A stretch of 64,000 nucleotides of DNA from Thermoplasmata archaeon (GTDB taxonomy: Archaea; Thermoplasmatota; Thermoplasmata; Lutacidiplasmatales; UBA184): positions 91,920 to 155,919 of the forward strand of contig JAKASQ010000002.1 of assembly GCA_021828195.1 (NCBI GenBank). The letters are read 5' to 3'. The notes below the pieces were generated by a model. That model was not told the DNA's origin. It made no database searches and worked only from the letters and a program-made list of their open reading frames with translations. This document shows, piece after piece, positions 5,528 through 58,357 of this stretch (its first letter is position 1; every line of letters starts with the position of its first letter). Made by a program: the position numbers and the translations under genes.

Positions 5528-6295
5528 CTACCCGGGAGTGGCCGACGCGACGCGGGGTCGGGGCTCGGAGGGCGGGCTCGCGATTTGGAGCTGTCGCGAG
5601 AGCTCGGTGAGGTCGGTGGCGATCGCGGAGGCGCCGGCGGCTAGGAAGCGGTCGGTCGACATGGTCGACGACTCGGACGGATCGGGAAGAACGGCGTAGA
5701 AGCGCACGCCCGCGCGCGTCGCGCACTCCGCATCGATCAGATGGTCTCCGACGTAGAGCGCGCGCTCGACCGGGACCCCCATCTCCGAGAGGAGGTAGAG
5801 GAGGGCCTCAGGGGAGGGTTTCGCGGGACCCGGCGCGTTGCGCGTCCGCATGAAGGAGAAGTACCGGTCGAGGTGGGTTCGGCCGAGGGCTTCGCGGGTG
5901 AACGGCTCCGAGCTGCGGGTCAACAGGCCCAGCCGGAATCCGCGTCCGTGGAGTCCCCGAAGGAGTGCCGGGGCCCCCGCACGGACCGTCGTCCGGTCGA
6001 GCGCCTGCATCTCGATCCCGTCGATCAGTTTGTGAAACTCGGCCTCGAACCGGAGGATGACGGTAGTCGGGGTCTCGGAAGAACGCAGTTCGTCGCGGGC
6101 GCTCTCCAAGATGCGATGGAGCGGCTCCTCCGGGCTCAATCGGCCGGGGGTGACCCCGTAGCGCTCGGCGAGCCGGATCACCTCGTGGCGCATCCGTCCG
6201 AAATCGTGACGCGACACCACGAGGGTGCCATCGAGGTCGAAGACGACCCCGAGAACGGGTTCGATGAACCGGGGCTCCGGGACGCGCGTGGGCAT
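5528..6295 (-). CDS. HAD-superfamily hydrolase (phosphoglycolate phosphatase-like)
   Basis: VFDLDGTLV, AKPSPEAL, YVGDHLID. Confidence 0.88.
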   Translation of the reverse strand: MPTRVPEPRFIEPVLGVVFDLDGTLVVSRHDFGRMRHEVIRLAERYGVTPGRLSPEEPLHRILESARDELRSSETPTTVILRFEAEFHKLIDGIEMQALDRTTVRAGAPALLRGLHGRGFRLGLLTRSSEPFTREALGRTHLDRYFSFMRTRNAPGPAKPSPEALLYLLSEMGVPVERALYVGDHLIDAECATRAGVRFYAVLPDPSESSTMSTDRFLAAGASAIATDLTELSRQLQIASPPSEPRPRVASATPG

Positions 6296-6374
6296 GGGTA
6301 CCTCTCGGAGAGAAAATACACGAGCGATGGTACGTATAGTCTTCCCTCCACCGGCAGGCCCGCCGGGGGGGCCG

Positions 6375-7901
6375 CTAGGTGCCGTTCGGCCGCTCGAGCG
6401 TCACGATCGATTCGCGCAGGCGGAAGGAGCGCCGCTGGCCGGAGCGTCGTTCGCGTGCGATGTCGACCGATCGGATCCGAAAGCCAACGGAAGCGCCGAG
6501 GCGGGCGGTGATCAGATCCCCGGGGACGTACGTGCCGGCGAGCAGCGAATCTCCGATGACAAGGACGAATCGTCCGCCGGGCCGGAGCGAGCGGTAGACT
6601 CCCGATAGGATCTGAAGCAGGTCCCGGAAGTAGCGGTGGACGATCCCGTGCATGTCATCGCGCCGGTAACATCCCTTGCGCCCCGTCCGATCCCGGATCT
6701 GCTCGAGGATCTCGGGCAGCCAGGGGTCCGGGGCGTCGTGCGTGGTTCGATACGCTCGCGTTTCCGCACGAGGCAGGTTGTCGCAGGCGACCTCCTCCCG
6801 ACGCAATCTCGCGAGATCGGCGTACGAAGAGACGTACCCGAGCCACGCGAGGTCGATCTTGTAGTTCATGACGTAGTCCATCCCGTTCACGTAGGGCGGG
6901 CTCGTGAGCGCGAGATCCACCGATCCCGCGGGCAACTCCATCGTTCGCGCGTCCCGCTGCTCGACCACGATCGGGGGGCCCCAGCCCGCGCGCTCGGGGG
7001 CCAGGACCTCGAGATCGGACCCCATCTCGGCGATCGCGGCACGGAACCGATCGAACGGGGGCGGGCCGGCGGGTGCCGCCGGTCCGTACCCCAGGCACGG
7101 GGAGCGTCGCAGGTGGCTGGACGGGATGAGGATCCGACCGAAGGCGAGGCGGGCCGCCTCGTCCTCGGGCCGAGCCGACTCGGGAAGGGCATCGCGCAGC
7201 TGGGTGAGTTCGTCCAAGACATCGGGGTCGAACTGTCGCCGGGTCTCGCGGAGGAACGGGAGGGCTCCGGGGGCTGATCGACGCGCGCGCGCGAGCACGC
7301 GTCGCCCGGCGCGGTCAAGCGCGGAGCGATCGAGTTCGAACCGGCCCTTCACGCGCGCCGCGAGCGCCGCCGGCGCGAGCAGTTCGAAGCCGATGGCTCG
7401 GGCTCCGGCGCGGCGAGCCTCGATGAGGGTCGTCCCGCTTCCCGAGAACGGGTCGAGCACGGTCGCCGGGGCGGAAAGCCCGGCATGGTCGATCACCGTG
7501 CGCACGAATTCCGCCGAGTAGCCCTGAACGTACGGCCACCAGCGATGGACCGGCAACTGATCGTTGGGTCGGAAGGTGATCGGACCGTCGTACGTGCCGA
7601 GAGCGACACCGTCCTCGTGCTCGAAGCGCTCCCGGAAGGCGGCCGCGTCCTCGAAATCCGGTCGACGCTCCAGGGTCTCGTAGTCGCTCAGCATCCACAG
7701 GCCACGGCCCATTCGCACGACTTCGCCGCGCGCTGCGAGACGGCCGAGCTCCACCTCCACCACCGGGGAGTCGACCTCCAGTCTCCGGGCCAGTTGGCGG
7801 ACGGTGGCCCCAATCGCCCCCGTCTCCTCCAGGGCGGTGCGCAGCTCCGCCGAGGAACCCATCATCGCGGGAGCCGGGAGTGCGACCACCAGGGCGCGCA
7901 T
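6375..7901 (-). CDS. DNA methyltransferase (amino-MTase, N4-cytosine type, alpha motif order) with N-terminal winged-helix-like segment
   Basis: HRWWPYVQGYS, motif I VLDPFSGSGTT, motif IV TSPPY. N-terminus ATVRQLARRLEVDSPVVEVELGRL...GEVVRMGRGLW. Start is 7901 or 7865. Confidence 0.82.
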   Translation of the reverse strand: MRALVVALPAPAMMGSSAELRTALEETGAIGATVRQLARRLEVDSPVVEVELGRLAARGEVVRMGRGLWMLSDYETLERRPDFEDAAAFRERFEHEDGVALGTYDGPITFRPNDQLPVHRWWPYVQGYSAEFVRTVIDHAGLSAPATVLDPFSGSGTTLIEARRAGARAIGFELLAPAALAARVKGRFELDRSALDRAGRRVLARARRSAPGALPFLRETRRQFDPDVLDELTQLRDALPESARPEDEAARLAFGRILIPSSHLRRSPCLGYGPAAPAGPPPFDRFRAAIAEMGSDLEVLAPERAGWGPPIVVEQRDARTMELPAGSVDLALTSPPYVNGMDYVMNYKIDLAWLGYVSSYADLARLRREEVACDNLPRAETRAYRTTHDAPDPWLPEILEQIRDRTGRKGCYRRDDMHGIVHRYFRDLLQILSGVYRSLRPGGRFVLVIGDSLLAGTYVPGDLITARLGASVGFRIRSVDIARERRSGQRRSFRLRESIVTLERPNGT

Positions 7902-7920
7902 CTGCGCGGCCGCTATCTCC

Positions 7921-8889
7921 CTATCGGTGTCGAGCGCTCGTCGGTCGAGTCGCTCGGCGGGGGCGAGCCGGGCGCGGGGGGCGCGTGGTGGTGGGACGGT
8001 CGGGGACCCCACGGGCGGTTCGATGATGGCGGAGGTGGAGCCGTTTGAGCTCTCGAATGAGGTCGTGCCGCATCCGACGATGCTCTACGTGAAACGCACG
8101 GGCCCACGGCTCGCGCCGGTGATCCGGGTCGAGCTCATCGAGCCGCAGGGCGAGCACGTCCCGATCGTGGAGCTCTCCGAGGCGGCGCTGGACCGACGCC
8201 AGGCGGCGGGGGAAGGTGGAGGACAGCGTTCCCTGGAGCGCGTCTTGGAGATCGGACAGGTAGCGCCACCGTCGCACGCGCACTCGGACCTCGTGGAGCC
8301 GCTCCGGACTGGGCCGGCGCATCGATCGCTTCCGTGCCCGACGTGCCGATCGCTCGAGGAGCTGTCGCTCTTCTTCGAGGCCACGGGCGATCGCCTCCGT
8401 GGTCGGAGCGGTGATCGAGCCTCCCAGAGCCACGGCCACCTCCTCGAAGAGCCCCGCCTGGCGTTCCGCTCGCAGGGTGGCTCGCAGGAGCTCGCGGCCC
8501 GTTCGAGTATCGTCCCGAAGGCGGCGACGCAGCGTCCACAGAGCGGAATCCGTGCTCATCCCGGAGGGCGACGATCCGTCCAAGAACCGGTCCACCAGCG
8601 TCAGCGCAACATCGAGGTCCCGCACCTCCCCGACAAGCCGGGTCGCTCGGCGCAGCCGCGCATCCAGCGCGGGCCAGGCCCCTCGGCCCGCGCGCCGACC
8701 GACCCGCGCCGCGACGCCCGCGAGCGTGCGCAGGCGGCGTAGATCGCGGTGAAGATCGTGCAGGTCCTCCGCCGTTGGGTGCGCCCGCAGGATCACCCGG
8801 TCGGTCGACGCGGTCGTCGTCGTGAGACACTCGCGGACGTAGCGCGCGAGCGTGGCCGGCGAGAGCGATGACGTTGGGGACTTCGCCAT
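7921..8889 (-). CDS. CHAD domain protein (polyphosphate-binding)
   Basis: EDLHDLHRDLRRLRT, LVGEVRDLDV, ERLHEVRVRVRRWRY, LGELHDRDV: the twofold CHAD H/R/D motifs. Start MAKSP at 8889. Confidence 0.88.
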   Translation of the reverse strand: MAKSPTSSLSPATLARYVRECLTTTTASTDRVILRAHPTAEDLHDLHRDLRRLRTLAGVAARVGRRAGRGAWPALDARLRRATRLVGEVRDLDVALTLVDRFLDGSSPSGMSTDSALWTLRRRLRDDTRTGRELLRATLRAERQAGLFEEVAVALGGSITAPTTEAIARGLEEERQLLERSARRARKRSMRRPSPERLHEVRVRVRRWRYLSDLQDALQGTLSSTFPRRLASVQRRLGELHDRDVLALRLDELDPDHRREPWARAFHVEHRRMRHDLIRELKRLHLRHHRTARGVPDRPTTTRPPRPARPRRATRPTSARHR

Positions 8890-9026
8890 GATGATGAACC
8901 GCTCCGGGGCCGAGGAAGACGGGCCCGTCGCCCGACCGGAACGCACCGTGCGGGGGAGTAAGGCGTACACGGGGTGCGGACCCCGGGCGCGATGATTCTT
9001 ATCGGGGGGATGCGTAAGGGGCGGGC

Positions 9027-10589
9027 GTGGGCCGAACGCCGAGCGCCTCGCTCCACCGCAGCGATATCGGGCCGGGGAAGCGCTTCTCCCAATCGATCGC
9101 AGTAATCGACGTCGGGTCGAACACCGCACGGCTTGTCGTCTTCGATGCCGCCCCCGCCGGGGCGGTCGGTCCGGTCTACGAGGCGAAGGAGGTGCCTCGC
9201 CTCGGCGCCGGTCTCGCGGCCGACGGCCGGCTCGCCTCCGAGGCGATCGAGCGTGGGGTCGCCGCGATGGAGCGGTTCGCCGGCACCCTCGAGTATCTCG
9301 GCGTGCCGAAGACCCTCGCCGTCACCACGAGCGCCGTGCGAGACGCGCCGAACGCGGGCGAGTTCATCTCCGCGGTCCAGCGGACGACCGGGATCCTGCT
9401 GCGCATCCTCAGTGGCAGCGAGGAGGCACGCTACGACTACCTCGGTGTGGCGAGCGCGTGGGGGCTCTCGGACGATCTCATCTGCGACCTCGGGGGCGGC
9501 TCGCTGCAGCTGGTCCAGACGCGTGCGGCCCAGATCGCGAACTCGGTCAGCCTACCGCTCGGGGTCCTCCGGGTGACGCAGCGGCATATCGATCACGATC
9601 CTCCCAAGGACCGCGAGCTCGAGGAGTTGCGCGCCTACGTCCGGGACACCCTTCGGACCACGGTCGACGCGTTCGGCGGGACGGGCCGTCGCCTGTTCGC
9701 CATCGGGGGCACTATTCGCTCGGCTGCGCGGGCCGCGATCGCGCTCCGGGACTATCCCGTCCGCCGCGTCCACGGCTTTCCGATCCGGGCGCACGACCTG
9801 GACGCGCTCCTCGAACTGATGGTGGAGATGCCGAGCGCGAAGCGCCGCGCGATCCCCGGGATTGGCAGCGATCGCTCGGATGTGATAGTCGCCGGCCTGA
9901 TCATTATGGAGGAGGTGTTGCGTGCTTCCGGGGCTCCGGAGATCGTGGTCACGGGCACCGGGATCCGGGACGGCCTCGCTCTCGAGATGATCGGGGCCGT
10001 TCTTCCCGCCGACGCGACCGAGCTCGCATCCCGCTCGGTGACCGCCGCCTCCGAACGATTCTCCTTCGCGCTCGACCGGGGGCGGGCTGTGGCAACCCTC
10101 GCCGGCCAACTATTCGATCTCTTTGCCGAGGAGCAGCACTGGGGAGCCAGTGAGCGGCTCGCCCTGACCGTGGCCGCGTGGATGCACGACTCGGGAACCT
10201 CGATCGATCTCTGGCGGCACGCTTACCACTCCGCGTATCTTATCCAGAACTACCCCATCTACGGACTCGATCAGGACGAAACGCTGCTCGCGGCGAGCAT
10301 CGTCGCGCAGCACGCGGGCGACGACCTCCCCTCGGGCTGGCGCAAGGGGCTCGCTCCGGTGCTCCGCCCGAGCGACGCGTCGACCGCGCGGCGCTTGGGC
10401 GCGGTCCTTCAGATCTGCGGGCTCCTCGTGGTCGCGGGACCGAGGTTCACGAGGGCCCCCGGGGGCCGCACGCTCGGAGTCACCTTTTCTACTCCCACGG
10501 GTAGCTCCTTTCCACCTCGAGCGGTCGAGAAGGCTCGCAAGCCCATCGAGCGTGAGTTCGACGTCGAGGTCCGGATCAAGGATGGCTGA
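9027..10589 (+). CDS. ppx: Exopolyphosphatase Ppx/GppA family with C-terminal HD domain
   Basis: IDVGSNTARL, TTSAVRDAPN, ILSGSEEA, DLGGGSLQL, GIRDG, MHDSG. A CTTATC element about 27 nt upstream supports the GTG start. Confidence 0.93.
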   Translation: MGRTPSASLHRSDIGPGKRFSQSIAVIDVGSNTARLVVFDAAPAGAVGPVYEAKEVPRLGAGLAADGRLASEAIERGVAAMERFAGTLEYLGVPKTLAVTTSAVRDAPNAGEFISAVQRTTGILLRILSGSEEARYDYLGVASAWGLSDDLICDLGGGSLQLVQTRAAQIANSVSLPLGVLRVTQRHIDHDPPKDRELEELRAYVRDTLRTTVDAFGGTGRRLFAIGGTIRSAARAAIALRDYPVRRVHGFPIRAHDLDALLELMVEMPSAKRRAIPGIGSDRSDVIVAGLIIMEEVLRASGAPEIVVTGTGIRDGLALEMIGAVLPADATELASRSVTAASERFSFALDRGRAVATLAGQLFDLFAEEQHWGASERLALTVAAWMHDSGTSIDLWRHAYHSAYLIQNYPIYGLDQDETLLAASIVAQHAGDDLPSGWRKGLAPVLRPSDASTARRLGAVLQICGLLVVAGPRFTRAPGGRTLGVTFSTPTGSSFPPRAVEKARKPIEREFDVEVRIKDG

Positions 10590-11280
10590 CCCTTCGAGCC
10601 ACGTGCACGGCTACCCGGGGCGATTGTTCGTCTTCGAAGGGCTCGACGGCAGCGGCAAGTCGACCCAGGCGCGTCTCCTGGGAAAGTGGCTCTCCTCCCA
10701 AGGGTACCGGGTGTTCCACACGGAGTGGAACTCCTCCGAGCTCGTCTCCAACATCATCCGGCGGGGCAAGAAGAAGGGGCTCCTCACCCCGACCACCTTC
10801 TCGCTGCTCCACGCGACCGATTTTGCCGACCGGTTCGAGCGTCAAATCCTGCCTCCGTTGCGCGCGGGGTATCTCGTCGTCTGCGACCGGTACTCCTACA
10901 CGGCGTTCGTTCGGGATTCGGCGCGGGGGTGCGACTCGGCGTGGGTCCGGAACATCTACGACTTCGCCCCGAGCCCCGACCGTACGTACTACTTCCGGGT
11001 GCCCGTCGCGGTCACGCTGCGACGCAAGCTCGCATCCCGGCTGAAGATTTCCTATCACGAGGCCGGGATGGATCTCGGGCTCTCCGACGACATCACCGAG
11101 AGCTACCTGAAGTTCCAAGGGCGGCTCAAACGCGAGTACGACCGCATGGTCGGCCCGGATGCGTTCACGGTGATCGACGCGGAACGATCCGTGGAACGGA
11201 TCCAGATGGACCTGCGCGTCGACCTCCGCCCACTGCTCGAGGACTTTCCGACGGGGGAGACGTTGCAGCATGAAGGATAG
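10582..11280 (+). CDS. Thymidylate-kinase-like P-loop protein, subunit 1 of a putative PPK3-type polyphosphate kinase
   Basis: Intact P-loop FEGLDGSGKSTQ, CDRY. The start overlaps the ppx stop region, and the gene is in tandem with a paralogue. Confidence 0.78.
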   Translation: MADPSSHVHGYPGRLFVFEGLDGSGKSTQARLLGKWLSSQGYRVFHTEWNSSELVSNIIRRGKKKGLLTPTTFSLLHATDFADRFERQILPPLRAGYLVVCDRYSYTAFVRDSARGCDSAWVRNIYDFAPSPDRTYYFRVPVAVTLRRKLASRLKISYHEAGMDLGLSDDITESYLKFQGRLKREYDRMVGPDAFTVIDAERSVERIQMDLRVDLRPLLEDFPTGETLQHEG

Positions 11281-12022
11281 GACCTACGGCACCCCCCTGC
11301 CCGGCGTGTCCGAGGAGCCGCTCACCGGCCGCCTCATCGTCGTCGAGGGAGCGGACGCCTCCGGCCGCACGACCGAGGTCGAAATTCTCCGCGAGTGGCT
11401 GGAGATCGAGGGTCACCCCGTGGTCGACACCGGTCTGCGCCGATCGACGCTGGTGAGCGAGCAGATCGATCGCGCGAAGGAGGGCCACACGCTCGGCGGG
11501 GCTACCCTCGCGCTCCTCTACGCCACGGACTTTGCCGACCAGCTCGAGAACAAGATCCTCCCCTCCCTCGCCGCCGGCAGCACGGTCCTCGCCGACCGGT
11601 ACATCTACACGCTCATGGCCCGGGCCGTGGTCCGCGGCGCGTCACGCGAGTGGGCCCAGCGTCTCTACGGGTTCGCCCTGCGCCCCGATCTCACGGTCTT
11701 CCTGGATGCCCGTCCCGAGATCCTCATGCATCGGGCGATCTCCAAGTACGGCAGCCTCGACTACTGGGAGTCGGGGATGGATCTGTCGATCTCCTCCGAC
11801 CGGTTCGAGAGCTTCCTCGAGTACCAGACGCGCCTGAGGCACGAGTTCGGGTGGATGGAGGAGCCGTACGGGTTCCGACTCATCGATGCGAACCGCCGCC
11901 CGGACCAGGTGCACCGGGACGTCGCCGAGATCGTGCGCCCGCTCTTCGAGACGCCGTCGGAGAAGAAGCGGCGAACGCGCGTCCCGCCTACTTCCCGATT
12001 GCGGAGAGCTGGCTCCGAGTGA
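11270..12022 (+). CDS. Thymidylate-kinase-like protein with degenerate P-loop, subunit 2 of a putative PPK3-type polyphosphate kinase
   Basis: VEGADASGRTT (Lys replaced by Arg), ADRY. Shares ATDFAD and GMDL motifs with the upstream paralogue. Confidence 0.78.
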   Translation: MKDRTYGTPLPGVSEEPLTGRLIVVEGADASGRTTEVEILREWLEIEGHPVVDTGLRRSTLVSEQIDRAKEGHTLGGATLALLYATDFADQLENKILPSLAAGSTVLADRYIYTLMARAVVRGASREWAQRLYGFALRPDLTVFLDARPEILMHRAISKYGSLDYWESGMDLSISSDRFESFLEYQTRLRHEFGWMEEPYGFRLIDANRRPDQVHRDVAEIVRPLFETPSEKKRRTRVPPTSRLRRAGSE

Positions 12023-12497
12023 CCAGCCACTCCAATCGAGCGGCTCCGGGCCGGATCGCACGCGAGAACTCGAGGGCCGCGGCGCCGGCCTTGGAGAACC
12101 GGCTGAGGGGCACGCTATCGCCGGTCAACGCGAGACCGATCAGCTGCTCGAGCCCTGGCTGGTGGCCGACCAGCAGGACCTCGGCATGGGGGGCCCGGAC
12201 GGTGCGTCGAAGGTGCTCGAGGATCGGTCCGGACGGTGCGCCCGGGCCGAGATCCGCCCAGAGCTCGATCTGTGGGGGAGCGTCGAACGCCGCAGCGAAC
12301 AGCTTTGCGGTCTGATGCGTGCGGCGGGCGGGGCTCGAGACGATCCGATCGAGGTGGGGGACCTCGTGGGCGAACCCGAGCCCGGCCCGTCGGGTCTTTC
12401 GCAGCCCCGGCGGCGTCAACGGGCGCGCCGCATCGTCCGGCCACCGGCGCGGGTCCTTCGGGACCGCGGGTCCGTGGCGAATGAGATAGAGATGCAC
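11988..12497 (-). CDS. sixA: SixA-like phosphohistidine phosphatase
   Basis: LIRHG, RPLTPPG, SSPARRTHQTA, LVGHQP. Confidence 0.88.
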   Translation of the reverse strand: MHLYLIRHGPAVPKDPRRWPDDAARPLTPPGLRKTRRAGLGFAHEVPHLDRIVSSPARRTHQTAKLFAAAFDAPPQIELWADLGPGAPSGPILEHLRRTVRAPHAEVLLVGHQPGLEQLIGLALTGDSVPLSRFSKAGAAALEFSRAIRPGAARLEWLVTRSQLSAIGK

Positions 12498-12548: not shown

Positions 12549-13268
12549 TCAGGCCCCGGCGGTCCCACGGGCTCGAGCGCCATCCGCGCGCAGGAAGAGC
12601 TCGAGGGTCACGCGTGCGAGCACGAGCGCGGCCAAGAACAGCGGGATCAGCATGGCGTCGCCCCACGGCCACGGGACCTTCGCCGCTTCTCCCAGCCAGA
12701 ACGTGGCGAACGCAAAGAGGAGCGAGGTCGCCCCCAGCTTGAGCCAAGGAACCTTGATCCGGCGGATCCGTTCGTGGAGGACGAATGCGAGGCCGATCAA
12801 GAGGATGCCGGCCAGCGCCGCGCCGAGGACCGCGGACCATCCCTGACCGGTGGCGGCGATCGGGAGCAGCACGATCGCGGCCTCGGTGGTCTCCACGGCG
12901 CCGACCGTGAACCCGCCGCTGAACTGCACGGTACGGGCGTTGCGGTGCGAGATCGCGGCCGCACCCACCGGGGTCGGTGCGCGCGCCCTCCGGTAGGAGC
13001 GGAGCGTGCTCCGGAACAGGAAGATCCCGAAGGCGACGAGCACGATTCCCGACCCGACCAGGAGGTACTGGGAAGGTACCGCGAGAATGAGCGCACCCGC
13101 CACCACCGTGATCGTTCCGATCGCCGTCACGCCGGCGACCGCACCGGCGGCGCCGTGGCGCAGGGTTCCTGTTTCGCCTTGGAGGGCAAAGATCAGCGCG
13201 ACTACTTCCGTCATCTCAACGATGACGATCAGGAAGGCAAGGACCACCGTCGCCAGGCTCAGGTACAC
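12549..13268 (-). CDS. Integral membrane protein with internal repeat (COG4280 / GDT1-like superfamily), possible cation transporter
   Basis: About 6-7 hydrophobic segments and two repeated motifs, VEMTEVVAL and VETTEAAIV. Confidence 0.6.
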   Translation of the reverse strand: MYLSLATVVLAFLIVIVEMTEVVALIFALQGETGTLRHGAAGAVAGVTAIGTITVVAGALILAVPSQYLLVGSGIVLVAFGIFLFRSTLRSYRRARAPTPVGAAAISHRNARTVQFSGGFTVGAVETTEAAIVLLPIAATGQGWSAVLGAALAGILLIGLAFVLHERIRRIKVPWLKLGATSLLFAFATFWLGEAAKVPWPWGDAMLIPLFLAALVLARVTLELFLRADGARARGTAGA

Positions 13269-13933: not shown

Positions 13934-14006
13934 TGGGCCGGGACGGATTTGAACCGTCGATCTCCGCGTTGTAAGCGCGACGTCCTAACCGCTAGACCAC
14001 CGGCCC
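13934..14006 (-). tRNA. tRNA-Val (TAC)
   Basis: Cloverleaf GGGCCGG-TG-GTCTAGCGGTTAGGAC-G-TCGCG CTTACAA CGCGG-AGATC-GACGG TTCAAAT CCGTC-CCGGCCC-A. CCA is not encoded. Confidence 0.96.
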
Positions 14007-15821
14007 GTGGTGGAGGGATGACCGCTCTCCCGTCATGGGAGTATCGGTGCTGGAGTGCTCGCGATGACGCACCCGCACGGCGCTCCCCTTCGTCAGTCCC
14101 GTCATCAGCCGCCCGGGTAGGAGCGCTTCGCCGACCCCGAGCAGCGTCCCATCGCGCATCAGCACCACCGCATCTCCTACGCGGATGGCCGGATCCGCAC
14201 GTCGAACGCCCGGGACGAACAGATCTCCGGCGAGGGTGAGCCCCTCCGAGACCTCGACCGCGAGCGGGGGATCGGGAAGGAGCCGCTGGCCGCCGGCGAC
14301 CGTGAGGTGGAACAACCCCCGCTCCTCCCTCCATGTCGCGAGGTCGACGTGAGCCGGGTCCACGAGACGCTGGAACCACGGCCGACCGGCCAAGCGGATC
14401 TTCCCCGCGAAGAGTCGGTCCGCGGCGGTCCGGCCAAACTGGAACGCGGCAATCTCCGCGAGCTCCTCCCGGACCACGGAGAGGGGTCCCCCGGAGGTGG
14501 GCCGGGACTCGACGAGCGCGCCGGCGACCGCGTCCCGCAGCGATGCGAGGGCCGCGGTCGTCGTGGTCCGATCGTCGCCGATCGTCCACGCGGTGGGAAG
14601 GCGATCTCCGATCGCTTCGCGCACGAAGCCATACTCGGCCGGATCGAGGTGGGCCACGATCGCGCGATACCGTCCCTGCCCGAGGATGTGATGGAGGCCC
14701 TCCCGGATGGGCTGCCGCTCCGCCTCGGACCACTCGCCGGTCACCGGGATGTCGTACTGCCGAGCCGGGTACACGTCCTCGAGCTCGCGCGGAACGAGCC
14801 CGACCGGAGAACTGAGCGAGACGACGTGCACGCGCTCGAGGGAACGGAGGCCCTCGAGAGCGCTCCAGAACCGTCGGTGCGAGCGGGAATTGCGGTACGG
14901 TTTGGTCCGGCTGCACGGAACCAGCAGCAGCACCTCCTTCGAGGCCGGTGGGCGGTACCGTTCGAGCAGGCGGGCGCGGAACCTCCGCATCTGTGGGCGA
15001 CGCAAGGATTCGGCCAGGACGTACCGGCCCGTCCCATGACCGACGACGGGAGTGTATTCCTCCAGGAGATCCCCAAGGTCCCGGTCCGCGTACCGCAGCA
15101 TCTCCGCCAAGGTCGGCTCGGCGGCGAGTCGCGCCTCCACCAGTTCCCTCAGCCGACCCACACGCGACGCGTGGTTAGCCCGGGCGAAGGCGTCCCGATA
15201 GATCGCTCCGAGATCGCTCGCCACGGAAGTCGTCAACGATGTTTCGGGGACCGAAGCTCCCAGCGACTCGTCCAACTCCGTCCCCGCCGACGAAAGGATC
15301 TCCCCTTCGGTCGTATCCATGAGGTCGATGCCGAGGTATTGCAGCATGGGGATTCGGTGGGGCAGTGCCACTCGGGGCGCCCACAATAGCGGCGCCGGTC
15401 CGAGCTCCTTGCGAATCGCGCCGATCGCTTGGATGAACGATTCTCCGTCCGACCAAAGCGCCCGCGCGTTCCCGAGGACCAACAGCCCCGGGCGGGCCGC
15501 GCGTAGGCGCTGAAGCGCATCGGCGGGCGGCGGCCAGTGGACCACCCAACTCCCGAACCCGGCTTCGGAAGCGCTTCCGCCCGCTCCGGTGATCTCGGGG
15601 GCGGGGACCGGGAAGGTGAGGTCCACGGAGTGACTGCCATCGCTGATCACTAGATGGCGATGCCCAGGGAGAGCCCCCGCGACCGTGGAGATGCACAGCC
15701 CGCCCGGTGGGGCAAGGTCGTTGGGCCGTTCGAGCAGCGCCGGTACAACGAACGATAGGTTCCCGACCGCCCCCCGACCGACCAGCCCGAGCCCTTCGAT
15801 GCGATCCACCGTGCGGGCCAT
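13992..15821 (-). CDS. arcS: Archaeosine synthase subunit (ArcS/TgtA2) with C-terminal PUA domain
   Basis: LLLVPCSRTKPY, SSPVGLVPRELEDVYPARQYDIPVTGEW, QFG, PUA LFVPGVRRADPAIRVGDAV. Confidence 0.88.
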   Translation of the reverse strand: MARTVDRIEGLGLVGRGAVGNLSFVVPALLERPNDLAPPGGLCISTVAGALPGHRHLVISDGSHSVDLTFPVPAPEITGAGGSASEAGFGSWVVHWPPPADALQRLRAARPGLLVLGNARALWSDGESFIQAIGAIRKELGPAPLLWAPRVALPHRIPMLQYLGIDLMDTTEGEILSSAGTELDESLGASVPETSLTTSVASDLGAIYRDAFARANHASRVGRLRELVEARLAAEPTLAEMLRYADRDLGDLLEEYTPVVGHGTGRYVLAESLRRPQMRRFRARLLERYRPPASKEVLLLVPCSRTKPYRNSRSHRRFWSALEGLRSLERVHVVSLSSPVGLVPRELEDVYPARQYDIPVTGEWSEAERQPIREGLHHILGQGRYRAIVAHLDPAEYGFVREAIGDRLPTAWTIGDDRTTTTAALASLRDAVAGALVESRPTSGGPLSVVREELAEIAAFQFGRTAADRLFAGKIRLAGRPWFQRLVDPAHVDLATWREERGLFHLTVAGGQRLLPDPPLAVEVSEGLTLAGDLFVPGVRRADPAIRVGDAVVLMRDGTLLGVGEALLPGRLMTGLTKGSAVRVRHREHSSTDTPMTGERSSLHHGPVV

Positions 15822-30163: not shown

Positions 30164-30520
30164 ATGACTCCTCGCGGGGATGACGACCGCGCCGAGATCG
30201 CCTATCGGGAGACACCCACGGGTCACCCGATCGTCTTCATCGGTCCGAAGCCGACGATGACGTACGTCTTCCAGCTCGTCGCACAACTTCACTCCGGTGC
30301 CGGACCGGTGTTTGTGAAGGCGCGCGGGAACGCGATCGGGAAGGCGGTCGACGTGGTCGAGGTCGTCCGGCGCCGCCTCCTGCAAGGTCAAGTGACGGTG
30401 GGCCCGATCTCGATCGATACCGAACGGCTGACGAACCGCGACGGCCGGGACGCGAACGTCTCCTCGATCACGATCTCGGTGGCACGGACGGCATCGGCGC
30501 CGCCGGTGTCGCCAAAGTAG
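30164..30520 (+). CDS. albA: Chromatin protein Alba
   Basis: VFIGPKPTMTYV, VKARGNAIGKAVDVVE, NVSSITI. TCTATAAT about 28 nt upstream. Confidence 0.93.
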   Translation: MTPRGDDDRAEIAYRETPTGHPIVFIGPKPTMTYVFQLVAQLHSGAGPVFVKARGNAIGKAVDVVEVVRRRLLQGQVTVGPISIDTERLTNRDGRDANVSSITISVARTASAPPVSPK

Positions 30521-32294
30521 GGCGCGCGGCGCGGATCACCCAGGTTCCCGCCCAGCGATCGCCGATCCGCTGCCGCTCGGAGCTCAGCACCATCACCAGG
30601 ATCGCGAACGCGCCGAAGAGGACCGTCGCGGTGAGAGCGATCCCGAGGAAGTACAGGAAGGCGAGGAGATTGGTGAGGTTCCCGAAGACGACCGCGTTCG
30701 CTGCGCCGACGCCCCCGTGGGCGAGGATCGCGATCGCGGCGGAGAGCCCGAGCCCGATCGCGCTGTAGGTGGCGAGGCGCGGGGTGGCGCGCACGAACGC
30801 GGCCAGCCAGCGCGGCCGACGGAAGTTCCGGTCGCGCACCTCGAGCCCGAGCATCCATTTCCCGAGGGTCGTGCCGAACGCGGTTTCCGAGATCGCGACG
30901 TAGAGGAACGCGACGGCGATGTAGCCGTAGGCCGCCGCGACGAACGAGACCGCCGAGAGCACGCCCACGAGCGAGCCGCCGATGCTGGCCGCGAGGAACC
31001 ACCACACGGCCACCGCCGGGGCGGTGACGAGGGCGAGATCGATGGCGTAGGCCGCGATGCGCGCACGGATCGACGCGAGGCGTGGAGTCCACAGTGATCG
31101 CCCGACCCCGACGAGCATCCGTGCTGCCAGCCATGCGCGCATGGCCTCGGGCGGATCGGCCGGAGCCGTGACGGCCAGCGCATCCAAGTTCGCCTGGTCG
31201 GCGACCACCCATCCCGGCGCCCCGAGCCCGCTCCACGGGTGGGCCCGATCGGGAGTCTCGGGAAGTTCGAGGACGCGATGGGCTTGCGCGGCGGCGTCGT
31301 GGGCGGCGACGCTCGCCGCCCGGATCGAATCGGCCGGCCGGCCGTCGTACTGTTCCTGCAGCGAGCGGGCCAAGCGATGGGTGGGAGAGGCGGGCGGGAC
31401 CGAGCCCGCATCGTCCGGGACGGGGATCCCGCTCCGTTCGAGGAGGTGGTGGGCGGCGTAGGCCGCGGCGAGCGCGAGGAGGCCGGACAGGTAGAGGAGA
31501 TCGAGAATGTCGGCGCCTCCGATGACGTAGAGGTTCATCGATCCCGGTCCGTAGAGAGGCGGTTGACGGAGCACGTCGGCCCCCACGAGCACGCCGAACG
31601 TCGTGGCGGAGTAGGCCATGGGCAGCGCGAGCGCTTCGCGTCCTGCGAACAGCGGCCGGGCGATCAGGACCGCGACGAACCCCGCGAGCACGGGGGTGAT
31701 TACGTAGATCGGGAACTGTTCTTCGATGCCGGCACCCGGCACCGTGTACGAGGCGAGAAAGGTGAGCACGGTCACTCCCGAGGTCAACGCCACGAGGCTG
31801 GCCGCCCGCCGTCCTACGTACGACGGGGCATCGCCGAGAAGCCGGGGCGCGAGGGCGAACGCCGCGAGGGAGAAGGCGGCCGCAATCGCAGTGACGGCGA
31901 TATCTTGGGTCGCCGCGTTCGAGAGGTACACGACGGCGGCGAGAGCGAGGGCGCTCTCCACGCTGAACCAGACGCCGAAGAACGCGAGCGAACGACGCAG
32001 CGGGGGAGCGATGCGCGCGAAGAGGGCGCACGAGACCACGAGGGGAAAGAGTCCCCCCCCGAGATTGATCGCCAAGAGGTCCGGGCCGATCCGGGTGAAC
32101 GTCAATTCCGCGACGTAGGCGAGGAGGCTGGCGGGTACCAGCAGCCAGAAGGTCAGCTTCCCAAAGCCCACGCTCTCGGCGAGGGGCCCCCGTTCCCAGG
32201 CGAAGAGCGCCAGGAACAACCACAGGAGCGGGGTAAGGGCGAAGGCGAGGATCGTGCCCGTGACATCGAGCCCCAGTTGCAGTGGATCGAGCAC
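30468..32294 (-). CDS. Membrane protein, DUF1614-like domain fused to an RDD domain
   Basis: AINLGGGLFP, AYSATTFGVLVGAD, YVIGGA (DUF1614-like); RARIAAYAID, GTTLGKWMLGLEV, QRIGDRWAGTWVI (RDD). Confidence 0.75.
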   Translation of the reverse strand: MLDPLQLGLDVTGTILAFALTPLLWLFLALFAWERGPLAESVGFGKLTFWLLVPASLLAYVAELTFTRIGPDLLAINLGGGLFPLVVSCALFARIAPPLRRSLAFFGVWFSVESALALAAVVYLSNAATQDIAVTAIAAAFSLAAFALAPRLLGDAPSYVGRRAASLVALTSGVTVLTFLASYTVPGAGIEEQFPIYVITPVLAGFVAVLIARPLFAGREALALPMAYSATTFGVLVGADVLRQPPLYGPGSMNLYVIGGADILDLLYLSGLLALAAAYAAHHLLERSGIPVPDDAGSVPPASPTHRLARSLQEQYDGRPADSIRAASVAAHDAAAQAHRVLELPETPDRAHPWSGLGAPGWVVADQANLDALAVTAPADPPEAMRAWLAARMLVGVGRSLWTPRLASIRARIAAYAIDLALVTAPAVAVWWFLAASIGGSLVGVLSAVSFVAAAYGYIAVAFLYVAISETAFGTTLGKWMLGLEVRDRNFRRPRWLAAFVRATPRLATYSAIGLGLSAAIAILAHGGVGAANAVVFGNLTNLLAFLYFLGIALTATVLFGAFAILVMVLSSERQRIGDRWAGTWVIRAARPTLATPAAPMPSVPPRS

Positions 32295-32396
32295 GGTGTA
32301 GGTCTCGCCCGCCCTCGGAGCCTCGGCGCCGGGGCGTGTCCCACGAGCGGCGAGGAACGTAAAGGGTTATTCCGCCCGGGGACGTGGATTCGGGCG

Positions 32397-33797
32397 ATGG
32401 TCGCCCAACGCACCGAGAAGGACTCCCTCGGGGAGCGCGAGGTTCCGGCGGACGTGTACTGGGGGATCCAGACCCTGCGAGGTCGGGAGAACTACCCCGT
32501 CAGCGGGTTGCGCGCGAGCCCCCACCTCGTCCGGGCCTACGCGTTGCTCAAGCTCGCCGCCATCCACGCCAACGTCGAATTGAAGGGCCTGGACGAGCGG
32601 CGTGGCAAGGCACTCGCGCAGGCGGCCCAAGAGATGGCGGAAGGGCGATTCGATCACGAGTTCCCGATCGACGTGTTCCAGGCGGGTGCCGGCGTCTCCT
32701 TCCACATGAACGTCAACGAGGTACTGACGAACCGGGCCCTCGAGATCCTGGGCCTGGCTCGCGGAGACTACCGGGACGTCAGCCCGAACGATCACGTCAA
32801 TCGTGGACAGTCGACGAACGATACCTTCCCCTCGGCGGCCCAGGTCGCGGTCCTCCTCGCGTTGCGCGAGCTCCGACCGGCCGTGGTCTCCCTCGCGGTG
32901 AGCCTCGAGCGCAAGGCGCAGGAGTTTCGCACGTTCGCGAAGGCCGGCCGCACCCACTTGAAGGACGCGATGCCCGTGACCCTCGGGGCGGAGTTCCGGG
33001 CCTACGCCATGGCGCTCGAGCGCGTGCTCGAGGCGCTCCCCACGGTGGAGCGGGCGCTCAGCGAGATCCCGCTCGGTGGGAGTGCGGTCGGCACAGGGGT
33101 CAACTCGATCGCCGGGTTCCGCTCCAGGGCCGTGGCGGAATACGCGTCGCTCACGGGGCTCACCCTCGTTCCCGGACGCGACGCGTTCGAGACGATGCAG
33201 AGCCGCTACGCGCTCGGGCTCGCGTCCGCTTGGCTGCGCACGCTCGCCCTCGAACTGATCCGGATCGCGAACGACCTCCGGCTCTTGGCGAGCGGACCGT
33301 ACACGGGGCTCGACGAGATCCGGGTCCCGGAGATCCAGCCCGGGTCGTCGATCATGCCGGGAAAGGTCAACCCTTCGGCCGCCGAGTGCCTGAACATGGT
33401 TGCGTTCCATGTGGTCGGTGCGGACGCCGCGACCGCGCTCGCGGTCCAGGCCGGACAGCTCGAGATCAACGTGATGATGCCGCTGGCGGCGTTCGAGGTC
33501 CTCTTCTCCGCCGAGATCCTCACGAACTACCTGCCCGTCTTCGCGCGTACGTGCATCGACGGGCTGATCGCGAACGGACCCCAGCTCGAGGCCTACCTGC
33601 TCGAGTCCGGTGCGATCGCGACCGTCCTCACGCCGAAGCTCGGCTACCTGAAGGTCGCCGAGCTCGTGCACGAGTCCCAATCCACGGGGAAGTCCGTCAA
33701 GGAGCTCCTGCTCGAGCGCCGACTCCTCACCGCGGCCGAGATCGAGGAGCTCCTGGGCGCGGCCGCGCTCCTGAAGCTCACCGAACCGGTGCCGTAG
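32397..33797 (+). CDS. Class II fumarase / aspartate ammonia-lyase family lyase
   Basis: EKDSLGE, YWGIQT, STNDTFP, GRTHLKDA, GSSIMPGKVNP. Fumarase and aspartase cannot be told apart by eye. Confidence 0.9.
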   Translation: MVAQRTEKDSLGEREVPADVYWGIQTLRGRENYPVSGLRASPHLVRAYALLKLAAIHANVELKGLDERRGKALAQAAQEMAEGRFDHEFPIDVFQAGAGVSFHMNVNEVLTNRALEILGLARGDYRDVSPNDHVNRGQSTNDTFPSAAQVAVLLALRELRPAVVSLAVSLERKAQEFRTFAKAGRTHLKDAMPVTLGAEFRAYAMALERVLEALPTVERALSEIPLGGSAVGTGVNSIAGFRSRAVAEYASLTGLTLVPGRDAFETMQSRYALGLASAWLRTLALELIRIANDLRLLASGPYTGLDEIRVPEIQPGSSIMPGKVNPSAAECLNMVAFHVVGADAATALAVQAGQLEINVMMPLAAFEVLFSAEILTNYLPVFARTCIDGLIANGPQLEAYLLESGAIATVLTPKLGYLKVAELVHESQSTGKSVKELLLERRLLTAAEIEELLGAAALLKLTEPVP

Positions 33798-42426: not shown

Positions 42427-43689
42427 CTACGGGTAGAAGCCGCGAATGTTGATGGCGTCCACGACCCGCTGGATCGCGAGCACGTAGGCGGCCGTCCGGT
42501 TGTGGATCGAGTACTGCTGGGCGATCTTGTGGGTGTCCGCGTAGGACTTTACCATCACCCGCTCGAGGCGCTGGTTGACCTCGTCGAGCGTCCAGAAGAA
42601 CCCCTGCAGGTCCTGTGCCCACTCGAAGTAGCTGACCGTGACGCCTCCCGCGTTCGCGAGGATGTCGGGCAGCACGGTGATCTTCTTTTGGAAGAGGATC
42701 TCGTCGGCCTCGGGAAGCGTCGGGCCGTTCGCGGCCTCCGCAACGATCTTCGCCTGGATCTTATCGGCGTTCTTCTTGGTGATCTGGTTCTCCAGCGCCG
42801 CCGGGATCAGGATGTCCACCGGAAGTTCGAGGAGCTCCTCGTTCGAGACCGACTTCGCGCCCGGGAATCCGACCACCGAGCCGGTCTTCGCCTTGTGCGC
42901 CTCGACCGCGTGCGGATTGAAGCCATCGGGCTTGTAGATGCCACCCTTCGTGTCGGAAGCGGCGACGATCTTCGCTCCCTGCTCGTCGTGCAGGAGGTTC
43001 ACCGCGACCGATCCGGCGTTGCCGAATCCTTGGACCGCCACGGAACCGCCCTTCACGCGGACACCGACGGTCTGGGCCGCCTCGCGGATGACGTAGGCGC
43101 AGCCGCGCCCCGTCGCTTCGCCCCGGCCCTCGCTGCCGCCGATGCTGATCGGCTTGCCCGTAACGACGCCCGGGACGGAGTATCCCTTCTGCATCGAGTA
43201 CGTATCCATGATCCAGGCCATCGTTTGGCTGTCGGTGTATACGTCCGGCGCAGGGATGTCGATCTCCGGACCGATGATCGGAGAGATCTCGGTCGTGAAG
43301 CGGCGGGTGAGGCGTTCGAGCTCTCCCTTGCTCATGTGCTTTGGATCGCAGATGATGCCACCCTTCGCTCCGCCGTACGGGATGTTGACGACGGCGCACT
43401 TCCAGGTCATCCACGCGGCGAGCGCGCGGACCTCGTCCAGCGTAACTTGAGGGTGATAGCGAATGCCTCCCTTCGTCGGGCCCCGGGCCATGCTGTACTG
43501 GACGCGATAGCCGGTGAACACGTGATAGTCGCCCTTGTCCAGGCGGACGGGGAAGTTGACCGTGAGCTCGCGTTTGGGGCTCTTGAGCACCTCGCGAACG
43601 CCGCCCTCCAGATGGAGGAGATCGGCCACGATATCGACCTGGCGCTTTGCCGTCTCGAACGGGTTGACCGTGGTGCTGTCGCTCGCCAT
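42427..43689 (-). CDS. gdhA: Glu/Leu/Phe/Val (glutamate) dehydrogenase
   Basis: GPTKGGIRY, MTWK, PYGGAKGG, DIPAPD, VTGKP, ATGRG, QGFGNAG, EAANGP, ANAGGVTVSYFEW. Confidence 0.95.
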   Translation of the reverse strand: MASDSTTVNPFETAKRQVDIVADLLHLEGGVREVLKSPKRELTVNFPVRLDKGDYHVFTGYRVQYSMARGPTKGGIRYHPQVTLDEVRALAAWMTWKCAVVNIPYGGAKGGIICDPKHMSKGELERLTRRFTTEISPIIGPEIDIPAPDVYTDSQTMAWIMDTYSMQKGYSVPGVVTGKPISIGGSEGRGEATGRGCAYVIREAAQTVGVRVKGGSVAVQGFGNAGSVAVNLLHDEQGAKIVAASDTKGGIYKPDGFNPHAVEAHKAKTGSVVGFPGAKSVSNEELLELPVDILIPAALENQITKKNADKIQAKIVAEAANGPTLPEADEILFQKKITVLPDILANAGGVTVSYFEWAQDLQGFFWTLDEVNQRLERVMVKSYADTHKIAQQYSIHNRTAAYVLAIQRVVDAINIRGFYP

Positions 43690-43738
43690 ATTCATTCCCT
43701 CAACGGGTGCGCGGCGAGTCGGGGGGCGGTACTTGAGC

Positions 43739-44767
43739 CTAACGGCCTTGCGAAGGTGCCGCACGGTCTCGGCGTCGCCTCGGCGTGCGTTGGAACGGTC
43801 TCCAACCGGCGGTCGGGAGCGGGCGAAGCCCGGAGGGCGCGGAGAGGTAGGCTCCCGTTCCGCGCTCCGCTCGTCCCACGACACGCAGCCGACCTCCCGT
43901 CGCTCCGACCGCGCGGACCGCCCGGCGCAGGGCCGAGTTCGGCACCGCCGCCAGCAGTTCGTAATCTCCCCCGAAGAACCCCGCCTCCTCGCGCGCCGCC
44001 TGCGGCAACGCGGCGATGGAGCGGTCCCACGGGATGCGGTCCGGGTCGAGGACGAGCCGGACGTTGCTCGCCCGGGCCATGAGGTGGGCCGAGTCCGCGA
44101 TGCCATCGGAGGTGTCGATCATGGCGTGGACCAGCGGGGCGAGCGCGATCCCTTCCCGTACGCGCGGGCGCACGTCGAGGAGCGCGAGCATATCGCCCCG
44201 ACCTCGAGCTCCTCGATGGGTCCTCCACCGGCGCCAGGCCGAGCCCCCTCGGCCGACCGATCCGGTCGTGACGAGGAGGTCGCCCGGCCGGGCCCCACTC
44301 CGGGGGGCCAATGACCCCGCCTTCCCCCATCCCACTACGGTGCTGACTACCGCGCGCACCGGGGAGGGCTTCGTGTCTCCTCCCACCACGTGCGCGCCAA
44401 GGCGCGCTCCGGTAGCTTCGGCGCCGCGAAGCACGGACTCGGCCCAGCGCCGGGGCGTCCCCGGCGGAAGGAGGAGCGCGATGAGGATCCCCGCAGGGCG
44501 GGCTCCCTTCGAAGCCGCATCGGACAGGCTCACCCCAGCGGCAGCGGCACCGATCGCCCGCGGGGGCGATCCCGCCGCAAAGTGGGTCCCCTCGATTAGC
44601 GCGTCGATTGTGAGTACGGCGACCGAGCCCCGCGGCGGTCTCAGCGCCGCGGCATCGTCTCCGACCGGGAGCGCGCCGGTACGCCCCGCGGGAAGATGCG
44701 AGGCGACCCATCGGTGGAACGCGCGTTCATCGATCGGAGCCGCAGAGGCCTTCCCACGGCGATTCAT
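43739..44767 (-). CDS. thiL: Thiamine-monophosphate kinase
   Basis: VGDDAA, IDALIEGTHF, SLSDAASKGA, VGGDT, IDTSDG, GGDYELL. Confidence 0.9.
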   Translation of the reverse strand: MNRRGKASAAPIDERAFHRWVASHLPAGRTGALPVGDDAAALRPPRGSVAVLTIDALIEGTHFAAGSPPRAIGAAAAGVSLSDAASKGARPAGILIALLLPPGTPRRWAESVLRGAEATGARLGAHVVGGDTKPSPVRAVVSTVVGWGKAGSLAPRSGARPGDLLVTTGSVGRGGSAWRRWRTHRGARGRGDMLALLDVRPRVREGIALAPLVHAMIDTSDGIADSAHLMARASNVRLVLDPDRIPWDRSIAALPQAAREEAGFFGGDYELLAAVPNSALRRAVRAVGATGGRLRVVGRAERGTGAYLSAPSGLRPLPTAGWRPFQRTPRRRRDRAAPSQGR

Positions 44768-55434: not shown

Positions 55435-56429
55435 CGAACCCTCGCCCACGGCTAGAGCCCGGTCGCGCACCGGCCCAGTCGACCCGCCTGTTGGTCGCGC
55501 TCGGCGGCAACGCGATCCAACCCGCGCACGATCCGGGAACATGGGCCGAGGCCATGCGCCAGATGCGCCAGACCGCGAACGTGCTCGCGCGCGTCGCACG
55601 GCGGGGCCCCGAACTCATCGTGACCCACGGCAACGGTCCTCAGGTGGGGGACCTGATGCGAGAGGCCGAACTGGGGGCGAGCGAGGTGCCGGCACCGCCG
55701 ATGCATGTGCTCGGGGCCGAGACCCAAGGTCAGATCGGATACCTCATCGCGCAGGAGCTCAGCGCCGCGTTCCAACACGCTCGCGTCCCCCGCTGGGTGA
55801 TCCCGATCATCAGCCGGACCGAAGTGTCGGTGCGCGATCCGGCCTTCCGCTCGCCTACGAAGCCCGTCGGGCGCTTCTACTCCGCCCGCGAGGCCCGAGA
55901 GCTCCGCCGCCAACACGGTTGGACGATGCGCGAGGATCTCGGACGCGGAGGCTGGCGGCGGGTGGTGCCCTCTCCCCGACCGCTACGCTGGCTCGAGGGA
56001 GACGCGGTGCGAGCGATGTTCGCCGCCGATCTCGGTACCCAATGCGTCTTCGTTGTCTCCGGAGGAGGCGGGATCCCGGTTGTGCGCCGTCAGGGACACT
56101 GGGAGGGGGTCGATGCGGTCATCGACAAGGACCGGGCGGCTGCGCTCGTGGCTCACACCCTCGACGTGGACACCCTTGCGATCGTGACGGACGTTCCCGG
56201 CGCCGCCCTCGACTACCAGAGCGACCACCCCCGCTGGCTCGGGCGTGTGGCGCTCGACGAGCTCATCCGATACTGGAAGCGGGGAGAGTTCGCCGAGGGG
56301 AGCATGGGCCCGAAGGTCGAGGCCGGGATCCGGTTCCTGCGGAACGGCGGCCGCACCTTCCTCATCTCCGACATCCGATCGCTTCCCCGGGCGCTCGCCG
56401 GCCGTGCGGGCACGCGCGTCGAGCATTGA
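55431..56429 (+). CDS. arcC: Carbamate kinase
   Basis: VALGGNAI, THGNGPQVG, KPVGRFY, RRVVPSP, GGGGIPV, AVIDKD, GSMGPKV. GTGA overlap with arcA. Confidence 0.95.
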   Translation: MTNPRPRLEPGRAPAQSTRLLVALGGNAIQPAHDPGTWAEAMRQMRQTANVLARVARRGPELIVTHGNGPQVGDLMREAELGASEVPAPPMHVLGAETQGQIGYLIAQELSAAFQHARVPRWVIPIISRTEVSVRDPAFRSPTKPVGRFYSAREARELRRQHGWTMREDLGRGGWRRVVPSPRPLRWLEGDAVRAMFAADLGTQCVFVVSGGGGIPVVRRQGHWEGVDAVIDKDRAAALVAHTLDVDTLAIVTDVPGAALDYQSDHPRWLGRVALDELIRYWKRGEFAEGSMGPKVEAGIRFLRNGGRTFLISDIRSLPRALAGRAGTRVEH

Positions 56430-56477
56430 TGCCAGCCTGACGCAACTGGCATAATCCGCCCGGCGCTCCATCGGGAG

Positions 56478-58338: not shown

Positions 58339-58357
58339 CCTCACCTGCGCGTTCCCT

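Follow-up and report, generated by a model that had tools for sequence, protein, structure and literature searches.

A five-gene island at positions 7921-12497 of the 64,000-nucleotide stretch of contig JAKASQ010000002.1 analysed here (hereafter the window), which derives from an uncultured Thermoplasmata archaeon, is very probably orthologous to the operon that encodes the family-3 polyphosphate kinase (PPK3) of archaea. It encodes a CHAD-domain protein, an exopolyphosphatase (Ppx), two thymidylate-kinase-like proteins (genes A and B) and a SixA-type histidine phosphatase. On the strength of their sequences, gene A is assigned as the catalytic subunit cPPK3 and gene B as rPPK3, the regulatory pseudo-kinase subunit. 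PPK3 as a family, the genes that accompany it in the operon and its spread by horizontal transfer have been published already. New is the complete PPK3 operon in a third archaeal lineage, the uncultured Thermoplasmata, where it is conserved and uniformly mis-annotated as thymidylate (dTMP) kinase.

PPK3 has been described from Sulfolobus acidocaldarius, where the catalytic Saci_2019 (cPPK3) and Saci_2020 (rPPK3), itself inactive yet stimulating, together make up an α2β2 reversible polyphosphate kinase whose activity is about 10-fold higher in the complex with rPPK3 (Höfmann et al., 2026, J Biol Chem, PMC12995831; preprint 10.1101/2024.08.28.610084). It is the work to which the sequence-only reading of the window had referred. 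The S. acidocaldarius enzyme (SaPPK3) favours ATP production from ADP and polyphosphate (polyP) and makes polyP only at a high ATP/ADP ratio; Saci_2019 makes polyP from ATP in vitro. Neither Saci_2019 nor Saci_2020 has dTMP kinase activity, which is present in the third paralogue Saci_0893. The genes form the operon saci_2017-2021, with the order sixA-ppx-cPPK3-rPPK3-CHAD (Höfmann et al., 2026). PPK3 was presented there as the missing polyP kinase of the Crenarchaeota, with a patchy distribution that comprises mainly Sulfolobaceae, Nitrososphaeraceae and a few bacteria; the survey covered 47,545 GenBank genomes, and most PPK3-bearing genomes were without PPK1 and PPK2 (Höfmann et al., 2026). 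The main text of the paper and that of its preprint contain no mention of Thermoplasmata, and our literature search found no paper joining PPK3 with this class.

Gene A (10582-11280, plus strand; 232 amino acids, aa) shares with canonical thymidylate kinases (Tmk; COG0125/TIGR00041, for example Thermus thermophilus 5x7j and Saci_0893) the fold, the PF02223 domain (E 2.3e-25) and the arrangement of P-loop, DRY motif and lid. Gene A aligns end to end with the solved cPPK3 homologue STK_15430 of Sulfurisphaera tokodaii (ST1543; PDB 2plr, 5h70; further entries 4nzy, 4rzx) at 204.8 bits (E 1.2e-59), whereas its score against the best canonical Tmk is 58 bits, about 3.5 times lower. For both window proteins together, the scores are about 50-58 bits against canonical Tmks and 122-205 bits against the cPPK3 structure. 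Gene A is 49% identical to the cPPK3 of Metallosphaera javensis and 40% identical to gene B. Its catalytic motifs are intact, with the Walker A motif GLDGSGKST, the DRY motif within CDRYSYT and the lid Arg (trimmed alignment column 155), and the combination of GxGKST, DRY and lid Arg is found in 81 of 81 non-redundant c subunits. Basic residues assigned to the polyP cleft are conserved in c but not in r subunits; of these, the Arg residues at trimmed columns 91, 160 and 219 are all present in A, while the c-family Lys of column 164 seems to be displaced by two positions. The REPGG motif, the thymine-stacking Phe, an Arg and the YQG motif of Thermus Tmk, which we take to be the dTMP site, are absent from both window proteins; in a column comparison, A has EWNSS, His, Phe and RD at these places, and B has GLRRS, Tyr, Phe and RA. 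With the dTMP kinase fold, replaced dTMP-pocket residues, intact c motifs and loss of the Walker A lysine in r, the pair resembles SaPPK3 and STK_15430. An AF2 model of A, built on an alignment of 23 close homologues, had a mean pLDDT of 39.8 and was not used. Homologues of A fall into more than 120 clusters at 90% identity, are 75-93% identical to A and, where named, are all Thermoplasmata 'dTMP kinase'; records of A and B homologues are called either 'dTMP kinase' or 'thymidylate kinase [Thermoplasmata archaeon]', which is the automated annotation that had been anticipated from the sequence.

Gene B (11270-12022, plus strand; 250 aa; PF02223 E 3e-18) scores 121.6 bits against STK_15430 and about 52 bits against canonical Tmks, and shares 32% identity with the rPPK3 of Metallosphaera (E 1e-32). 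The eight best PDB matches of its AF2 model (pLDDT 76) are all ST1543 (E 3e-16 to 4e-14; target-normalised TM score 0.82-0.88), with canonical Tmk structures following behind at about 1e-11. A basic C-terminal tail of 25 residues, predicted to be disordered (residues 230-250 in the model), distinguishes B from its counterpart in SaPPK3. The Walker A motif of B reads GADASGRTT, that is, the lysine is exchanged for arginine, and the DRY motif is kept (LADRYIYT). Every one of the 77 separate r genes surveyed across taxa and of the 120 close Thermoplasmata homologues has the same exchange (GR[ST]T). Over the 77 sequences, conservation within the r P-loop reaches at least 97% at each of G, E, G, D, G, R and T, the Arg being invariant. 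DRY is present in B and 75 others of the 77 r genes, the sole exception being Metallosphaera with DGY, and the DRX arginine is found in all 120 Thermoplasmata r homologues (117 DRY, 3 DRF). Since, among these sequences, the DRX arginine is lost only in Metallosphaera, its loss looks specific to the Sulfolobales and not family-defining. In proteins in which c and r are fused, His, Val or Thr occupies the r-type Walker A lysine position; in one such protein the DRX motif reads DGY, its arginine being absent as well. As the lysine is gone both from the separate r genes (Arg) and from the fusions (His, Val or Thr), loss of the Walker A lysine appears to be a general hallmark of r subunits; the main text of Höfmann et al. 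(2026) makes no reference to it.

In a neighbor-joining (NJ) tree of 81 c and 77 r sequences (100 bootstraps), gene A falls inside the c clade and gene B inside the r clade, at a long branch from Thermus Tmk, the single canonical outgroup, so that the tree is a weaker test than one of the whole superfamily would be. The Thermoplasmata sequences form separate subclades with 99% (c) and 98% (r) support, apart from the Sulfolobales and from the Nitrososphaerales. Together with the fact that A is about 3.5-fold closer to STK_15430 than to any canonical Tmk, the grouping of B with r subunits bears out the idea of a PPK3-type system in a Thermoplasmata archaeon.

The wider distribution was approached by scanning GTDB species representatives with the cPPK3 alignment, which gave at least 600 pattern matches, of which at least 439 were confirmed and the best 80 loci kept; such a scan shows presence in many phyla and is not a census, and Metallosphaera is the one Sulfolobales locus among those kept. 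Besides it, these 80 loci comprise many Nitrososphaerales, Methanoliparum, three loci labelled Thermoplasmata and one 'bacterium' bin of the same architecture, as well as bacteria of many phyla including Acidobacteriota/Terriglobia, Verrucomicrobiota, Planctomycetota and Chloroflexota. Of the 80, 76 have rPPK3 directly behind cPPK3, and ppx and sixA are as a rule adjacent. An exhaustive representative search yielded 333 clusters at 50% identity with E <= 1e-30; the PPK3 family is therefore wider than 'a few bacteria' implies. The predicted operons of Nitrososphaerales and bacteria (Acidobacteriota, Verrucomicrobiota, Planctomycetota and others) resemble the island in the succession of c and r, in the proximity of ppx and sixA, and in the motif pairs GKST plus DRY (c) and GR[ST]T plus DRY (r). 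They differ from it in gene order: many Acidobacteriota have c-r-ppx-sixA and Nitrososphaerales sixA-ppx-c-r, whereas in the window CHAD is followed on the opposite strand by ppx, c and r, with sixA convergent behind them.

Among the best 80 loci this last order is confined to Thermoplasmata-type loci. Three of them (L041, L047 and L083) have exactly the layout of the window, with CHAD on the minus strand, ppx, c and r on the plus strand and sixA on the minus strand. The fourth (L084) has it through rPPK3, where the contig stops before the position of sixA. ORFs (open reading frames) homologous to CHAD lie on the minus strand at the equivalent position in all four. L084 (DAIDCO010000074.1) is deposited as 'bacterium isolate clean3188', and combines the Thermoplasmata-type arrangement of CHAD, ppx, c and r with a syntenic flank of HAD-family and methyltransferase-like genes. 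Its c and r proteins fall inside the Thermoplasmata clades, and its label is probably wrong.

The CHAD and SixA genes had been regarded in the sequence-only reading as extra components, and this view had to be given up, as both saci_2017-2021 and the Metallosphaera locus (L005) carry the same five genes. The island thus shares with the SaPPK3 operon the sixA, ppx, cPPK3, rPPK3 and CHAD families and the position of c directly upstream of r, beside ppx; the difference lies in orientation, the five genes being co-directional in Sulfolobales, whereas in the window CHAD is divergent and sixA convergent. Further differences concern Metallosphaera, whose rPPK3 has DGY where B has DRY, and whose Ppx has 420 aa, whereas that of the window has 520 aa with domain III.

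The fusions found in the family survey take several forms. Single-chain fusions from metagenomes are P0241 (460 aa), of cPPK3 and rPPK3, and P0242, P0254 and P0258 (650-696 aa), which join cPPK3, rPPK3 and the HD domain III of Ppx. P0279 (1237 aa) combines an MFS transporter, cPPK3 and DUF2252. P0296 is a 'polyvalent' protein of 2575 aa with cPPK3-like, ART-PolyVal and inorganic pyrophosphatase domains, an architecture that is typical of mobile elements or phages.

Pfam and TIGRFAM profile matches place all five genes on the strands on which they had been read from the sequence. The CHAD-domain protein (7921-8889, minus strand; PF05235, E 5.3e-21, 76.1 bits) has a maximal ORF of 7921-9129 with the likely start at the ATG at 8889, which gives 322 aa. 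It is divergent from ppx, and the two are separated by an intergenic region of 137 bp (8890-9026). The ppx gene (9027-10589, plus strand) starts with GTG and encodes 520 aa with Ppx/GppA domains (PF02541, E 1.9e-55) and an HD-like domain III (PF21447, E 7.7e-13); against the exopolyphosphatase model TIGR03706 it scores 274 bits, under the cut-off of 307. The ppx stop and the start of gene A overlap by 8 nucleotides (nt; ATGGCTGA), and the stop of A and the start of B by 11 nt. The maximal ORF of gene A extends over 10552-11280, and the probable true start, ATG 10582, gives the 232 aa that match more than 100 homologues. The SixA-type histidine phosphatase (11988-12497, minus strand; 169 aa; TIGR00249, 76.1 bits at a cut-off of 74.5; PF00300, E 6e-11) has its RHG motif at residues 7-9 and is convergent with rPPK3, the 3' ends of gene B and sixA overlapping by 35 nt. 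Among the five genes only the CHAD and A starts fall inside maximal ORFs, and the outer bounds 7921-12497 are correct.

Opposite CHAD, a plus-strand ORF (8023-8742) for a hypothetical protein of 239 aa was rejected as a shadow ORF; it is without a Pfam match, whereas the minus frame matches CHAD at 5e-21. The public gene call of the contig and three Logan/ENA copies carry this ORF and miss CHAD, probably because both frames have a high GC content at third codon positions (GC3; 0.82 and 0.79). An OFeT_1 permease at 12549-13268 was considered as a further member of the island and rejected, as it is not conserved beside sixA in other Thermoplasmata loci. On the other side, the neighbours of CHAD (5528-8012, minus strand) encode a HAD-family hydrolase and a protein of 508-545 aa whose N-terminal region is winged-helix (MarR-like) and which also has a DNA-methylase-like motif. 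Synteny of these HAD and methyltransferase-like flank genes extends to each of the four other Thermoplasmata loci (E about 1e-96 to 1e-212), and they are without an evident link to polyP.

An AT-rich patch resembling a TATA box (TTCTTATC; 8996-9003) has its centre about 27 nt upstream of the GTG of ppx. The ppx ORFs of all four other Thermoplasmata loci, too, are preceded by an AT-rich patch, about 15-35 nt upstream of their start and in GC-rich surroundings. The patch of the window is a putative archaeal promoter, from which a ppx-cPPK3-rPPK3 transcript with a short leader or none would start; a scan of the window for sigma-70 promoters and terminators is uninformative for an archaeal host. 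Metatranscriptome contigs give weak support for expression of the island. Six contigs of a related strain (95-99% identity) and one near-identical contig of a second run together span portions of ppx, c, r and sixA; one contig crosses the ppx/c junction. Two mine-drainage metatranscriptomes of the same study contained no match to the island.

From these data the following model can be proposed, in which we infer enzyme activity, stoichiometry, in vivo direction and the roles of CHAD and SixA by analogy. ppx, cPPK3 and rPPK3 would be translationally coupled and probably transcribed from the TATA-like element upstream of ppx. cPPK3 (gene A), a P-loop kinase of the dTMP kinase fold whose thymidylate pocket appears to have been rebuilt as a basic site, would catalyze the reversible reaction ATP + polyP(n) <-> ADP + polyP(n+1). 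rPPK3 (gene B), which has lost the Walker A lysine and is presumably non-catalytic, would assemble with cPPK3 and activate it. If the analogy to SaPPK3 holds, polyP would be synthesized only at a high ATP/ADP ratio, and ATP would otherwise be regenerated from polyP. Ppx would hydrolyze polyP to inorganic phosphate, and the CHAD protein, which presumably binds polyP granules, would bind the polymer. SixA may be an accessory or regulatory part. The proposal that it exerts phospho-His regulation is speculation; PPK3 is a P-loop kinase for which we know of no phospho-His intermediate. A comparable division of labour is found in the two-domain class II PPK2, which has been drawn as an analogy to PPK3 (Höfmann et al., 2026). 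Here too, as in Pseudomonas aeruginosa PA3455, an active P-loop kinase module is combined with an inactive paralogous module needed for oligomerization; the enzyme belongs, however, to another P-loop kinase family, and the modules are fused there, whereas they are separate genes in the window.

Several observations weigh against the assignment of the island to PPK3. The polyphosphate kinase activity of the Thermoplasmata proteins is deduced from homology to the Sulfolobus enzyme. With 91.9 bits, gene A passes the cut-off of the NCBI dTMP-kinase equivalog TIGR00041 (83.25 bits), below which B remains with 77.3 bits. Bootstrap support is moderate, 71% for the c clade and 77% for the r clade, and comes from a simple NJ tree that has one outgroup; the transcript contigs are of low depth, stem from a related strain and may include DNA carry-over. 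The search for a canonical tmk, or for a PPK1 or PPK2 as the real polyP synthase, spans the 64-kb window and 10 kb beside it. Lastly, Höfmann et al. (2026) ascribe the inactivity of rPPK3 to a replaced arginine in the DRX motif. Gene B retains this arginine, so that the Walker A Lys-to-Arg change is the one feature by which it is called inactive. Loss of the Walker A lysine is expected to abolish activity in P-loop proteins.

The retention of the DRX arginine leads to a different view of the regulatory subunit, which is possible but on the whole rather doubtful. Here loss of the Walker A lysine, which in separate r genes is a strict Lys-to-Arg change, would be the family-wide r signature, and loss of the DRX arginine, as seen in Sulfolobales, would not. 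The Thermoplasmata-type rPPK3, which represents the majority of the family, would act as a sensor that binds a ligand and not as a dead scaffold, serving beyond mere oligomerization. As ligand, its loop G-x-x-G-x-G-R-[ST]-T and the DRY arginine would take up ATP/ADP or a polyP end, and cPPK3 would thereby be tuned, in direction or in activity, to the energy charge. Walker A Lys-to-Arg mutants of P-loop NTPases usually still bind nucleotide, which counts in favour of a sensor, as do the strong constraint on the r P-loop (at least 97% at the seven positions named, n=77) and the presence of DRY in 76 of the 77 r genes. Trace ADP formation by Saci_2020 (Höfmann et al., 2026) points in the same direction. 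On the other hand, ligand binding is a prediction from sequence, and fused c-r proteins have much more degenerate r P-loops, which argues that some lineages can do without an exact ligand site.

As to the assigned PPK3 pair as a whole, a further alternative is that it is essentially a one-way polyP:ADP phosphotransferase that regenerates ATP, the polyP itself being made by a PPK1 or PPK2 encoded elsewhere. The extent of genome inspected, 64 kb plus 10 kb, leaves room for such a gene. The absence of ppk1 and ppk2 from the window, as read from the sequence, was borne out, since Pfam scans of 59 window ORFs revealed neither PPK1 nor PPK2, the 10 kb upstream contained neither of them, and A and B had no match to PF03976 or a PPK1 domain at E <= 0.01. 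The further wording that PPK3 stands in place of PPK1/PPK2 thus holds for the window and the 10 kb upstream, but as a genome-wide statement it goes beyond the region scanned. Some care is needed with the name, as 'PPK3' in the biocatalysis literature appears to mean another enzyme, a PPK2-family member of Ruegeria pomeroyi; papers on UDP-sugar synthesis, judged by their titles, seem to use this other sense. Both the scarcity of PPK1 and PPK2 in PPK3-bearing genomes and the synthesis of polyP from ATP by Saci_2019 in vitro (Höfmann et al., 2026) speak against a strictly one-way enzyme, and we consider it unlikely.

When all window ORFs of at least 80 aa were searched by phmmer with A, B and Thermus Tmk, a third Tmk paralogue was not among them; the 10 kb upstream had none either, and no canonical tmk was found in the flanks of the 84 loci searched. 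That A, B or both serve as ordinary thymidylate kinases, a tmk duplicate merely lying beside ppx, is highly improbable: the PF02223 matches of both, the TIGR00041 score of A and the names in public records agree with it, but the canonical dTMP-site residues are replaced in both proteins, B lacks the Walker A lysine, the Sulfolobus orthologues have no dTMP kinase activity while Saci_0893 has it (Höfmann et al., 2026), and the tight c-r-ppx-sixA linkage in at least 76 unrelated genomes is unexpected for an enzyme of nucleotide salvage.

The host differs from S. acidocaldarius in being a GC-rich, uncultured Thermoplasmata archaeon, known from mine-drainage, sediment and soil metagenomes, which are the main sources of near-identical sequence. 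GC content is about 68% across the window and the gene complement is archaeal, as marked by ribosomal protein S24e, an RpoE'/Rpb7-like subunit, an archaeosine tRNA-guanine transglycosylase (TGT)-like protein, TrmB and HTH_10 regulators and Alba. Several other features of the window may be recorded. A tRNA-Val(TAC) gene (13934-14006, minus strand) shares 15 nt with the end of the archaeosine-TGT-like ORF (13992-15821), and a weak, partial tRNA-like Rfam match at 58235-58288, uncalled by ARAGORN, lies just upstream of tRNA-Met (58357-58436). The ORF 31239-33797 (plus strand; 852 aa) has Lyase_1/fumarase C domains only from residue 398 onward, and its first approximately 350 codons are antisense to an RDD/DUF1614 membrane-protein gene (30468-32294, minus strand; GC3 0.87); its start is over-extended, as judged by the late domain start and the antisense gene. 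The same applies to a glutamate dehydrogenase ORF of 559 aa (42427-44106), which overlaps an AIR-synthase-related ORF (43739-44767). A row of genes for arginine deiminase, an amino-acid (carbamate-type) kinase and a Na+/H+ exchanger at 54133-57779 (plus strand) could be an arginine-deiminase module for acid resistance or ATP yield, which would fit the mine-drainage habitat.

For annotation, the assignment means that genes of the A and B type should be renamed and that CHAD was missed by at least one gene call. The motif survey adds a small refinement to the definition of the regulatory subunit; the concept of PPK3 is unchanged by it, and the mechanism is borrowed from Sulfolobus. Thermoplasmata metagenome-assembled genomes that seemingly lack any polyphosphate kinase may carry PPK3. 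In Sulfolobales, polyP has been linked to copper tolerance; if this holds true, the mine-drainage habitat makes a role in metal or acid stress plausible for these archaea.

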